Below, piece by piece: positions 39,001 to 42,000 of a stretch of DNA of 64,000 nucleotides. The first letter of the stretch is position 1. The number at the start of each line of letters is the position of its first letter. Source of the DNA: a virus (taxonomy: Duplodnaviria; Heunggongvirae; Uroviricota; Caudoviricetes); IMG/VR virus record IMGVR_UViG_2684623171_000005; one strand, written 5' to 3'. The position numbers are program-made.

Positions 39001-42000
39001 ACGTTTGAAGAAAAACTGGCTTCTCAGTCTGTGGTATTACAGAAGTGCGTGACGGGTGATGATGTGCGTCCGATGCTTGAGCAGATGGTGAAAGAGGCAG
39101 TGAGCCATATTCCTGTTCCGCGCGACGGTCGTGACTACGATCCGGATGTTCTGCAGAAGGCGGTGAATGATGCGGTTGCGAATATTCCGGTACCGGCAGA
39201 CGGCAAAAGTATCACCCCGGATGATGTGCGTCCGATGCTTGAGCAGATGGTGAAAGAGGCAGTGAGCCATATTCCTGTTCCGCGCGACGGTCGTGACTAC
39301 GATCCGGATGTTCTGCAGAAGGCGGTGAATGATGCGGTCGCGAAAATACCGGTACCGGCAGACGGTAAAAGTATCACTCCGGATGATGTGCATCCGATGC
39401 TTGAACAGATGGTGAAGGAGGCGGTAAGCCATATTCCTGTTCCGCGTGATGGTCGTGACTACGATCCGGATGTTCTGCAGAAGGCGGTGAATGATGCGGT
39501 CGCGAAAATACCGGTACCGGCAGACGGTAAAAGTATCACTCCGGATGATGTGCATCCGATGCTTGAACAGATGGTGAAGGAGGCGGTAAGCCATATTCCT
39601 GTTCCGCGTGATGGTCGTGACTACGATCCGGATGTTCTGCAGAAGGCGGTTCTGGAGGCGGTGAGTGCCCTGCCGGCTCCGCAGGACGGGCGTGATGCCA
39701 CGGCACTGGAAATACTCCCCGCCATTGACGATCAAAAATCCTTTCCCCGGGGCTCGTATGCCACACACCAGGGTGGACTCTGGCGGGCGTATGAAAAAAC
39801 GTACGGGATGCGGGGATGGGAATGCCTGGTTGACGGGGTGGCGGATATTGACGTCAGCATGACGGGTGAACGGTCGTTCTCTGTGGTGGTCCGGCAGAGC
39901 AGTGGCCAGCGTACGGAAAAAACATTTTCCCTGCCGGTGATGCTCTACCGTGGTGTGTTCAGAATCGGTGAAACCTACCACCCCGGTGATACGGTGACGT
40001 GGGGGGGCTCGCTGTGGCACTGCAACAGTATGACCGCCGATAAACCGGGGGATGCGCATGCATCTGGCTGGACGCTGGCTGCCAAACGGGGACGGGATGC
40101 AGGAGGCGGAAAATGACGGCATTACTGACACTGGAAGAGATCAAGGCACATCTGCGTGTCGACCATGACGCGGATGATGACATGCTGATGGACAAGGTTC
40201 GTCAGGCTACCGCCGTGCTGCTGGCCTACATTCAGGGCAGCCGGGATAAAGTGATCCGTGAGGACGGTGAACTGATCCCGGGCGAGGCATTAACCCGGAT
40301 GAAGGGGGCTGCCATGCGACTGACCGGGATGCTGTACCGGAATCCGGATCTTGCGGAGCGGGAAGAACTGCTTCAGGGGGAGCTGCCGTTTTCTGTTTCC
40401 GTGCTGATTTACGATTTGCGTTGTCCGACGGTGTTATGAGGAGGGGGAATGGCAATATCTGCAGGTCGTCTGACACAGATGATAAGTGTTCTGAACCCGG
40501 TGTTAACCCGTAACGCTGCCGGAGAAATGACGGAAGAATGGGTGTCATGCGGGAAAATTCATGCGGATATCCGGGGCAGGAGCAGCCGGGAGCGGATGCA
40601 GTCCGGTGCGGAAATGGCGCAGGCGGAAATCCGCATCTGGGTGCGCGGTCAGTCCGGTCGGGAAATCACGGCAGCGTCACGACTTCATGTGCTGAGTGGT
40701 CCCTGGCGTGACCGGATCCTGAACGTTGTCGGGCTGCCCGTGCCGGATGCGACCGGCGGACGTCTGGAAATTCTCTGTCGGCTGGGAGGGGAAAAATGAT
40801 CGAAACCCTGCTGGATTTTTCGGGGCTGGAGGACATCAGCCGCGATTTGCAGCTTCTGAGTGGTGCAGAAAATAACCGGGTGCTGCGTGAGGCAACCCGT
40901 GCGGGTGCGAATGTGCTGAAAGAAGAAGTGGTGTCACGGGCACCGGTACGCAGGGGAAAACTGCGCCGCAATGTGGTGGTCCTTTCCCGGTGCTCCCGCG
41001 ATGGCGGGATGGAATCCGGTGTGCATATCCGGGGTGTTAATCCGGACACCGGTAACAGCGATAACACCATGAAGGCGGATAACCCGCGCAATGCTTTCTA
41101 CTGGCGGTTTGTGGAAATGGGGACCGTGAATATGCCACCGCACCCGTTTGTGCGCCCGGCATTTGATGTGCGCAGTGAACAGGCGGCACAGGTGGCGATT
41201 GCGCGGATGAACCGGGCCATTGATGAGGTACTGAGACGATGACGGAGGCGGATTTGTATCCTCATCTGGCACATCTTGCCGGCGGGCAGGTGTACCCGTA
41301 TGTGGTCCCCCTGCTGGATGGCAGGCCGTCGGTGGCGCTTCCGTGGGTGGTTTTCAGCCTGATTTCATCGGTGTCTGCGGACGTGATGGGCGGGCAGGCG
41401 GAGTCCTCAGTGTCGGTGCAGATAGACGTTTATGCCGGGACTGTGACGCAGGCGCGTCAGATACGTCAGGACGCCCGTGAAGCCATAATGCTGCTGGCCC
41501 CGGGATCCGTCAGTGAAATGCAGGACTATATTCCGGAAAACCGCTGTTACCGTGCAACCCTGGAGTTTCAGGTCACGGTGTAATTTTTTCAACAGAACCC
41601 ATAACCCGCCGCGTGCGGGTTTTTTATTATCAGGAGGCAGAATGTCTGCTTTGTATGAACGTTCACAGCTGACGCAGGTGATGATTTCATCTGCCCCGGC
41701 GACTGCTGAAACCATGGAGAAGGCGGAATATCTGCGCCTGGACTGCACCATCAAGGAAGTCCAGTTCACCGCCGGTCAGAAACAGGATATTGATGTGACC
41801 ACGCTCTGCTCCACAGAGCAGGAGAACATCAACGGTCTGGGGGCGTCGTCCGAGATTTCCATGTCGGGTAATTTTTATCTGAATCAGGCCCAGAACGCCC
41901 TGCGTGATGCCTATGACAATGACACGGTGTATGCGTTTAAGGTGCAGTTTCCGTCCGGTAAGGGCTTTAAGTTCCTGGCGGAAGTGCGTCAGCACACCTG

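Follow-up and report, generated by a model that had tools for sequence, protein, structure and literature searches.

A portal-adjacent gene of an Stx2c prophage carries an in-frame variable-number tandem repeat and may encode a portal-vertex fibre

The portal region of the head module

We analysed a window of 64,000 nucleotides (the whole stretch of DNA taken from the IMG/VR virus record IMGVR_UViG_2684623171_000005), whose source locus is an Stx2c prophage resembling phage 1717. The head module reads, in order, TerL, a protease-MCP fusion, the portal, a gene that we designate X, and a gp6-like connector. The genes and the sites at their junctions are the following, in window coordinates:

37532..38896, + strand, HK97-type portal gene, 454 aa, complete alone (PF04860, TIGR01537)
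38877..38881, + strand, G5 run at the portal/X junction, giving two genes (alignment with JJ2434, which has one extra G)
38893..38896, + strand, ATGA overlap, the X start ATG lying over the portal stop TGA (read from the sequence)
38893..40116, + strand, gene X, a 407-aa repeat protein of an uncharacterised family, directly 3′ of the portal gene (ORF, homology, dN/dS)
40001..40007, + strand, G7 run within X (comparison with relatives)
40113..40439, + strand, gp6-like head-tail connector (Ad1) gene (Pfam PF05135, PHROG 40)

The portal ORF is matched by Pfam PF04860 (Phage_portal) over residues 54-382 (E 1.4e-80) and by NCBIfam TIGR01537 (portal_HK97) over residues 45-388. The portal profile thus lies wholly in the upstream ORF (residues 45-388), and none was matched within the 407-aa X in Pfam or NCBIfam. 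The first-pass annotation had placed a 407-aa ORF between the portal and head-tail connector genes, and this order is confirmed by the two flanking genes. The stop/start overlap indicates that the portal gene and X are translationally coupled. The G run at the junction forms a Shine-Dalgarno-like motif, AGGGGGA, 11 nt upstream of the X start, its counterpart in Salmonella phage FSL SP-016 being AGAGGA. A second ATGA overlap, also read from the sequence, sets the connector ATG over the stop codon of X. A minus-strand ORF at 39037..40131 (364 aa) was rejected as a shadow ORF cast by the repeat; every signal of homology or selection is on the + strand.

Two genes rather than a broken portal gene

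Copy number was surveyed in 80 related loci; 83 loci had a readable junction, and 77 a full-length X. The junction run is G5 in 51 of the readable loci, on at least six flanking haplotypes, and G6 in the other 32, on at least four. G6 merges the two ORFs into an 861-aa portal-X fusion, so that X is physically joined to the portal gene in these 32 of 83 loci, phages 2851 and WGPS6 being among the carriers of the fused form. In this respect X resembles the HK97-family portals with C-terminal extensions, under which label it stands in the databases, whereas X itself has no portal domain. Phage 2851 is infective, and the fused form appears viable.

PGAP and several phage records describe the split form as damaged. 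PGAP labels it "phage portal protein, frameshifted" in strains 7784 and 86-24, the records Stx2a_F349, WGPS4 and WGPS8 carry "portal protein (pseudogene)", and both split loci whose RefSeq annotation was examined are flagged with a broken portal gene. According to this reading, the ORF at 38893-40116 would be an untranslated or functionless remnant, the true gene being an 861-aa portal with a C-terminal repeat extension that has suffered a G6-to-G5 deletion here. The uninterrupted 2586-nt gene in JJ2434, the fused 2580-nt gene in phage 2851 and the 859-position "portal" profile PHROG 2271, which covers both ORFs, are consistent with it. We nevertheless consider it exceedingly improbable. The split layout with the ATGA overlap also occurs in Salmonella, Pseudomonas and metagenomic relatives: two ORFs overlapping by 4 nt were found in Salmonella phage FSL SP-016, Pseudomonas phage PAJU2, BP-4795 and Sakai Sp10, as well as in three of the four metagenomic relatives having an upstream gene identifiable as a portal. 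Apart from the metagenomic ones, the distant two-gene relatives stand at 46% and 27% identity. The amino-acid sequence with which the portal ends, when read in the G5 frame, is conserved (AMFRGILRK before the stop here, AMIRGFLTK in FSL SP-016), and the portal profile stops at residue 382-388 of the 454-aa ORF. X is open in all 51 split (G5) loci but intact in only 26 of the 32 G6 loci, further disruptions being confined to the latter (6/32), and among split loci the C-terminal domain has a dN/dS of 0.17 and the N-terminal 50 codons one of 0.25.

Moreover, Sakai Sp10, in spite of its split layout, was scored morphogenetically intact, packaged and transferred to K-12 (PMC2669165). Sakai Sp6, Sp9 and Sp12 were scored "portal defective" in the same work (PMC2669165); an explanation of these scores by the split layout was rejected, since Sp10 has the split G5 form and yet was scored "+". 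The 80-locus survey, together with the distant relatives and the dN/dS values, led us to drop the view of the ORF as a pseudogene fragment, which had been based on the PGAP label and on the G6-to-G5 difference from JJ2434, and which is now largely refuted: the uninterrupted form did not prove ancestral, and the downstream part showed no relaxed selection or decay. The comparison indicates instead that the two-gene layout is ancestral and X a genuine gene rather than a defunct portal half, and that the 861-aa "intact portal" is a derived fusion produced by one extra G (G5 to G6). The initial assignment of a separate 407-aa gene adjoining the portal stands, despite the PGAP and GenBank pseudogene labels.

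The G run might also be a programmed or phase-variable site, such that one locus would yield free portal and X as well as the fusion, both of them used, whether through −1 slippage during translation or transcription or through a population that mutates between G5 and G6. In line with this, the G5 allele (51 loci) and the G6 allele (32 loci) are both found with several different flanking haplotypes, slipping by −1 in the P site on G GGG would, as read from the sequence, bring back the fused frame, and the G7 run inside X is likewise variable between relatives (G6 in its place truncates X to 379 aa in strain 86-24 and three IMG/VR loci). However, the zero-frame codons are TTC AGG GGG ATA, with no canonical X XXY YYZ heptamer, the codon after the run varies (ATA or ATT), and no conserved −1 frameshift heptamer was found at the junction in this sequence and its relatives. 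The Salmonella and Pseudomonas relatives do without any G run (AGAGGATTT), G5/G6 tracts are short for hypermutable tracts, and recombination among many co-resident prophages can spread either allele. Such a switch therefore seems to us very improbable.

A young repeat array of variable copy number

The middle of gene X is occupied by a tandem repeat:

39058..39650, + strand, 162-bp tandem repeat array, 3.7 copies (Tandem Repeats Finder and copy-by-copy identities)
39058-39219, 39220-39381, 39382-39543 and 39544-39650, + strand, array copies 1-4 (Tandem Repeats Finder)
39651..39705, + strand, diverged end of unit 4 (LEAVSALPAPQDGRDAT), an old module at the array edge (identity drop)

Tandem Repeats Finder reported a period of 162 with 97% matches, 0% indels and a score of 1053, far beyond chance. 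The period corresponds to 54 codons, the array is in frame with the + strand ORF 38893..40116, and its first codon is that of D56, which bears out the 54-aa units that the first-pass annotation had read in the 407-aa protein. Over the first 107 nt, copy 1 is identical to copy 2 and copy 3 to copy 4. The divergence of the fourth copy, also noted earlier, was located more closely: this copy is 94-100% identical to the others over the first 107 nt and 77-82% identical over 162 nt, departing from them after about 39650. A weaker period of about 75-81 nt (59% matches) is nested inside the array, which shows that the 54-aa unit consists of two related older modules of about 27 aa each. Every module comprises a helix and an "IPxPxDG" motif (also (I/L)PxPxDG), and this X contains eight of them. 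Concerted evolution among the units is only modest, with a unit-to-unit identity of 0.90 inside a locus against 0.88 across loci. A genuine gene thus contains an in-frame variable-number tandem repeat of recent origin, the copies of which have been partly homogenised.

The expectation that such repeats are prone to copy-number change proved correct, as the number of units among the related loci is not invariant but ranges from 3 to 7 (3, 4, 5, 6 or 7). The 77 full-length X proteins measure 353 aa (n=19), 405/407 aa (n=46), 461 aa (n=9), 515 aa (n=1) or 569 aa (n=2), and the differences always come in 54-aa steps. Most probably, unequal recombination or replication slippage between the near-identical copies adds or removes 162-bp units, each event comprising exactly two modules (54 aa), which would alter only the length of the middle stalk and leave both end domains intact. 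Across the X family, a protein contains from 0 to 18 modules spaced at 25-29 aa, which points to a variable stalk as a family trait. The array is also a likely cause of assembly breaks, since most database homologues of X are "partial" proteins at contig ends.

Predicted architecture of X and its possible place in the particle

The architecture was derived from an AF2 model of the monomer, with the following parts flanking the array:

38899..39054, + strand, N-terminal long alpha helix, residues 3-54 (AF2 model)
39706..40113, + strand, conserved C-terminal beta domain, residues ~272-407 (AF2 model, family alignment)
39946..40092, + strand, CBM5/12-like module, residues ~352-400

The model predicts that X begins with a helix of 52 residues (mean pLDDT 86-95 per 10-residue block over 1-50, and 64 over 51-60), continues with the module array and ends in a beta domain of about 135 aa (pLDDT 94-98 over residues 271-400), which itself terminates in the CBM5/12-like module. 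Structure prediction of the repeat, as proposed in the first-pass annotation, gave eight short helices of 13-17 residues with 12-residue IPVPxDGxD loops between them, at low confidence in this region (pLDDT 45-74). The stalk is acidic (pI 4.6). In the family alignment every invariant column and nearly every near-invariant one falls inside the C-terminal beta domain, the most conserved part of the family.

The CBM5/12-like module agrees with CBM5/12 in its three-dimensional fold and remains below the PF02839 gathering cut-off of 26.2 bits: full-length X scores 18.8 bits, while the C-terminal domain taken alone reaches 23.1 bits, as does the Salmonella homologue. Known chitin-binding CBM5/12 modules are those of Serratia ChiB, Streptomyces ChiC and Bacillus ChiA1. 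Several modules of the CBM5/12 type bind chitin through a Trp-Trp position, which reads N-S, D-E or E-E here. The putative module would bind a glycan. The C-terminal fold is common to the tail fibres of Agrobacterium phage 7-7-1, the Milano receptor-binding proteins and collagen-like phage proteins; the collagen-repeat proteins with this same domain are at most suggestive of a trimeric fibre.

Sequence comparison places X in a large family that carries no name and whose genes directly follow those of HK97-type portals. The family comprises about 5,450 clusters at E<=1e-3, nearly all stand-alone among the 150 listed, and a portal domain is present in only one of 10 long family representatives. 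Searches with X itself returned only spurious low-complexity matches in Pfam (TetR_C_35, DUF4244, FliG_N) and no match in NCBIfam or, by sequence, in the PDB; the family profile retrieved from the PDB only designed helical repeat proteins and chitin-binding domains with weak E-values. The accession PF28083 is given as a precomputed Pfam assignment on some fused homologues. Gene X is carried by 1,247 of 5,426 complete E. coli genomes. In the virion proteomics literature on PAJU2, BP-4795, Stx siphophages and phi330 we found no data on X for any family member, nor did we find in the literature EM or genetic data placing it in or on virions; the deposited phi330 sequence has extra frameshifts in the X region and was excluded as evidence.

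Several known systems invite comparison. T4 fibritin (Wac) is a segmented coiled-coil neck whisker with short helical segments, loops and a small C-terminal folding domain. X shares the short helical segments with loops, the accessory neck fibre being a feature of fibritin; no homology was detected, and X ends in a ~135-aa beta domain with a CBM5/12-like end rather than in a foldon. SPP1 gp7 and Mu gpF are low-copy, portal-associated proteins encoded directly after the portal, with natural portal fusions. X is like them in gene position and in portal coupling and fusion, but the Phage_Mu_F profile was not matched and neither sequence nor fold similarity was found. The neck-passage structure (NPS) of the lactococcal siphophage TP901-1 consists of non-essential fibres at the portal vertex (PMC4493119). 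Its likeness to X lies in an elongated repetitive stalk and a carbohydrate-active or carbohydrate-binding C-terminal part; the two differ in that they have no sequence relation, the NPS gene follows the baseplate genes while X follows the portal, and a vertex position is only predicted for X.

As a best guess, we take X for a fibrous accessory protein, present in low copy number and located at the portal vertex; this position in the virion is a prediction. As a whole, the material is best explained by a genuine, portal-coupled variable-number repeat gene whose product is a portal-vertex fibre with a length-tuned stalk, an account to which we give an even chance. Either the N-terminal helix or the conserved C-terminal domain would serve as an anchor near the portal, and the repeat number would tune stalk length. 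Surface exposure, as initially suggested for the repeat, may apply, favoured as it is by the CBM5/12-like end and by a fold recurring in tail fibres and collagen-like phage fibres. As to the decoration domain suggested alongside, several observations speak against a protein decorating the whole capsid: X is coupled to the low-copy portal, it tolerates covalent fusion to the portal C-terminus, and by Pfam, PHROG or fold it matched no known decoration protein of the head, such as lambda gpD, Hoc, Soc, Dec or pb10. Two further observations speak against an external fibre. In the fused form X continues from the C-terminus of the portal, an end that points into the capsid wherever portal structures are known, so that an apparently viable fusion there is awkward for such a fibre; and the C-terminal domain is the part most conserved across hosts as distant as E. 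coli and Pseudomonas, while receptor-binding tips usually show the reverse.

A serious rival, possible though on the unlikely side, is a minor head protein bound to the portal from within the capsid, on the crown side, like SPP1 gp7/MuF or a trans-encoded P22 portal barrel. There X might organise DNA or leave at infection, the array setting how far it extends into the capsid. The place of X, immediately 3′ of the portal gene and translationally coupled to it, is also that of SPP1 gene 7 and of many MuF genes; the recurrent, apparently viable fusion fits a protein already beside the crown, the conservation of the C-terminal domain suits a target that is itself conserved and not host-specific, and helical modules on flexible Pro/Gly-rich loops could thread a channel. 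On the other hand, the C-terminal fold is shared with external fibres (7-7-1, Milano, collagen-like) and with CBM5/12, X has no sequence match to MuF/gp7 or ejection proteins, and its stalk is acidic. Secondary damage to X in 6 of 32 G6 fusion loci and in none of 51 G5 loci also points to fusion as harmful to X and not neutral. Quite improbable, in our opinion, is that X helps to assemble the head and is missing from the mature virion, acting as a chaperone of the portal or like a scaffold in head modules with a fused protease-capsid protein and no separate scaffold gene. X does co-occur with the protease-MCP fusion module, its middle part is elongated, acidic and helical, and in the PAJU2 record ORF007 is only a "hypothetical protein" where ORF003 and ORF010 are marked "structural protein"; yet scaffolds are not characterised by a strongly conserved beta domain of 135 aa carrying a CBM5/12-like module, and 0-18 modules across the family would be unusual for a protein templating a fixed geometry.

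Extending the portal-vertex fibre further, X may represent a widespread but unrecognised class of portal-vertex proteins (about 5,450 clusters, always after HK97-type portals, in protease-capsid fusion modules), in which an array of 25-29-aa helix/PxPxDG modules sets the length, the CBM-like domain binds a conserved glycan, e.g., peptidoglycan, and, in E. coli prophages, the G5/G6 run toggles between free and portal-tethered X to give two kinds of particle; this broader proposal is doubtful and rather improbable as it stands.

The 162-bp length polymorphism offers an easy PCR marker for separating the many near-identical prophages in EHEC genomes. Under the broken-portal label, prophages with genes for Shiga toxin or effectors can seem defective though their head genes are in the native arrangement. 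X is a conserved, selected partner of the portal in the head module of Stx1, Stx2c and many non-Stx lambdoid prophages, and its role, be it as a fibre of the neck, inside the capsid or in assembly, bears on how these phages build their particles and meet their cells.

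Gene order of the source prophage

The ORF of X, the 407-aa repeat protein, is 100% identical to that of the Stx2-converting phage 1717 and several O157:H7 Stx2c-type prophages. Since stx2A and stx2cB match phage 1717 exactly, the window is a Shiga toxin 2c prophage, with the genes arranged as follows.

24863-25822: stx2A, exact match to phage 1717
25834-26103: stx2cB, exact match to phage 1717
26967-28904: SASA-family carbohydrate esterase gene, after stx2A and stx2cB
33098-33661: TerS
33658-35319: TerL, intact
35383-37320: fusion of S78 protease (Peptidase_S78) and HK97-fold major capsid protein, a 645-aa ORF with a coiled-coil linker
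between this fusion and the portal gene: 73-aa ORF
37532-38896: HK97-type portal
38893-40116, + strand: gene X
40113-40439: gp6-like adaptor, after X
42364-42738 and 42762-43043: tail assembly chaperone pair (Phage_TAC_1, Phage_tail_T)

The adaptor gene is followed by those for head closure, gp10-like and gp17-like proteins, the major tail protein, the tail chaperones and the tape measure. Distant relatives (PAJU2, metagenomic contigs) likewise carry the protease-capsid fusion together with gene X. In the phage 1717 record, IS629 is annotated at 34140-35450, the place expected for TerL, for which the record gives no large-terminase CDS, whereas TerL is intact here; the window is thus a 1717-like prophage without the insertion, and may be packaging-competent. 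A match at about 14979, far from the head genes, to the last 40 nt of the IS629 annotated in phage 1717 suggests that a copy of this element is present elsewhere in the window. The major tail subunit (about 41642-42358) bears a C-terminal Ig-like domain (I-set/Ig_2/Ig_3), likely a further surface-exposed adhesion module of the same virion. The tail assembly chaperone gene pair is the usual site of a programmed -1 frameshift; the region is called otherwise in some relatives (50 + 138 + 69 aa).

A 54-aa repeat of variable copy number

Tandem Repeats Finder placed the array at 39058-39650 (period 162, 3.7 copies, 97% matches, no indels, score 1053), with a weaker period of ~75 nt (59% matches) nested within it. 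The first-pass annotation had described a 162-bp tandem repeat of 54-aa units with a diverging fourth copy, and this description was accurate. The array starts at codon 56 of X and is in frame, each 54-aa unit consisting of two related modules of ~27 aa.

Module A: DDVRPMLEQMVKEAVSHIPVPRDGRDY
Module B: DPDVLQKAVNDAVAxIPVPADGKSITP

Over the first 107 nt, copy 1 is identical to copy 2 and copy 3 to copy 4, after which copy 4 diverges; such a mosaic is the pattern expected of unequal exchange between copies. A single A+B pair was recently amplified into the near-identical 162-bp copies, whose number would shift through unequal recombination or replication slippage.

Length of X at the 77 loci with complete X
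353 aa: 19 loci
405/407 aa: 46 loci
461 aa: 9 loci
515 aa: 1 locus
569 aa: 2 loci

The classes stand for 3 to 7 units and differ only by steps of 54 aa, which bears out the earlier expectation that repeat number changes among relatives. The array in X is an in-frame VNTR. Inside one locus, units share identities of 0.76 to 0.97, and the array of the window (0.95) is among the most homogeneous. Each gain or loss of a unit adds or removes two helix-loop modules and leaves both end domains untouched. Across the wider X family there are 0 to 18 PxPxxG modules per protein, spaced by 25-29 aa, and the 29/25 alternation of the window's X recurs in a relative with 55% identity, thus indicating that a variable-length modular stalk is an old family trait. 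Most of the database homologues listed are 'partial' portal proteins ending at contig edges, which suggests that short-read assemblies routinely break at gene X because of the 162-bp repeats and the many prophage copies in the same genome.

Gene X and the portal gene

In an identical genome, PGAP labels 37532-40116 as one pseudogene ('phage portal protein, frameshifted'), several phage records carry 'portal protein (pseudogene)' for the locus, and the 'portal' profile PHROG 2271 (859 positions) spans both the portal and X ORFs. Alignment with the uninterrupted 2586-nt gene of JJ2434 revealed a sole length difference, GGGGG at 38877-38881 in the window (G5) vs. GGGGGG in JJ2434 (G6, giving a portal-X fusion). 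Under G5, the portal ORF stops 13 nt on, and its TGA overlaps the ATG of X (ATGA, 38893-38896). Two ORFs with the 4-nt overlap are also found in Salmonella phage FSL SP-016 (46% identity), Pseudomonas phage PAJU2 (27%), BP-4795, Sakai prophage Sp10 and three metagenomic members, a fourth such member having an 18-nt gap in its place. As read in the G5 frame, the end of the portal protein is conserved as well: it closes with AMFRGILRK in the window and with AMIRGFLTK in the Salmonella phage, which is devoid of any G run.

Among 83 loci with a readable portal/X junction, G5 was the state at 51, spread over at least six flanking haplotypes, and G6 at 32. X was open as far as its conserved C-terminus in all 51 split (G5) loci. 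Its dN/dS among split loci (C-terminal 125 codons, 0.17; N-terminal 50 codons, 0.25) shows purifying selection. The portal needs no part of X to be complete: the profiles PF04860 (residues 54-382) and TIGR01537 (residues 45-388) lie fully inside the 454-aa ORF. An exhaustive profile search gave ~5,450 X-family clusters (50% identity) at E<=1e-3, with a median length of 401 aa among the 150 family matches listed; a portal domain was present in one (1,237 aa) of the ten longest members checked among the matches listed. The difference is not a sequencing artefact, since finished sequences of the Sanger era include both G5 (Sakai Sp10, BP-4795) and G6 (phage 2851). The layout of Sp10 is exactly 454 + 407 aa, as in the window. 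This prophage was scored as retaining all its morphogenetic genes, and it underwent packaging and transfer to K-12 (PMC2669165).

A frameshifted portal pseudogene is made very unlikely by the two-gene relatives, the intact X at 51 of 51 loci, the dN/dS values and the complete portal ORF. Taken together with the conserved portal C-terminus, the same evidence allows us to conclude that the two-gene state is native; the most plausible reading is then that the 861-aa 'portal' arose secondarily by gene fusion and that the pseudogene label is an annotation error. The first-pass annotation was right, contrary to the databases, in treating X as a separate gene, and X is a selected gene coupled to the portal. 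The AGGGGGA stretch 11 nt 5′ of its ATG, with the counterparts AGAGGA (Salmonella phage) and GAGG (PAJU2), probably doubles as the ribosome-binding site of X; a programmed-frameshift signature was absent at the portal/X junction.

A G7 run (40001-40007) lies within the CBM-like module of X. In strain 86-24 and three IMG/VR loci it is G6, truncating X at 379 aa, and all four are also G6 at the upstream junction. Further X truncations in 6 of the 32 fusion loci vs. none of the 51 split loci hint that X functions less well once fused and can be dispensed with for a short time. In the plaque-forming relative vB_EcoS_phi330 (PV189401), region 1637-4379 contains several extra frame breaks (portal of 445 aa, X split into 376 + 83 aa), probably assembly errors, and merits a re-check before reference use.

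Predicted structure and proposed location of X

The AF2 model of X (66-sequence alignment, mean pLDDT 76.5) comprises three parts.

Residues 3-54: long helix, mean pLDDT 86-95 per 10-residue block over 1-50 and 64 over 51-60
Repeat region: eight short helices of 13-17 residues each between 12-residue IPVPxDGxD loops, pLDDT 45-74
Strands from ~285 to 400: beta domain, pLDDT 94-98 over residues 271-400

In the family alignment, every invariant and almost every near-invariant column falls in the C-terminal domain, which is near neutral (pI 8.0), the stalk being acidic (pI 4.6). With Foldseek, the final ~50 residues of the model superpose on CBM5/12 (ChiB, 1.1 A over 45 residues; ChiC chitin-binding domain, 2.3 A over 47); X thus shares the fold but falls short of the curated sequence threshold (CBM_5_12 Pfam score 18.8-23.1 bits, cut-off 26.2). 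Foldseek also ties the C-terminal domain to Agrobacterium phage 7-7-1 tail fibres and Milano receptor-binding proteins, and predicted viral structures (BFVD) link it to many phage proteins with collagen repeats or ChiC-type binding domains. The structure search gave no solved structure similar to the beta part at residues 285-350. X belongs neither to the portal family nor to MuF or any named decoration family.

With its fibre-like build and an end resembling CBM modules and tail fibres, X may be an accessory fibre with a putative glycan-binding tip, whose repeat number would set its reach. Being translationally coupled to the 12-copy portal, X would be made in low amounts, which argues for the portal vertex and not for capsid-wide decoration. 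As a functional analogue we propose T4 fibritin, an accessory neck fibre. Another would be the portal-vertex fibres of TP901-1, which are non-essential (PMC4493119).

A serious rival reading has X bound to the portal inside the capsid, in a position like that of SPP1 gp7/MuF. The portal C-terminus is interior in known portal structures, such that the apparently viable fusion to it would put X inside the capsid; moreover, the C-terminal domain of X is strongly conserved across very different hosts, while receptor-binding tips usually show the opposite.

No paper describing X was found in a literature search. The finding itself is of an ordinary kind, a length-variable repeat in a gene of the phage structural module. 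It provides a useful annotation correction, and the X family is an uncharacterised, very widespread and portal-coupled one.
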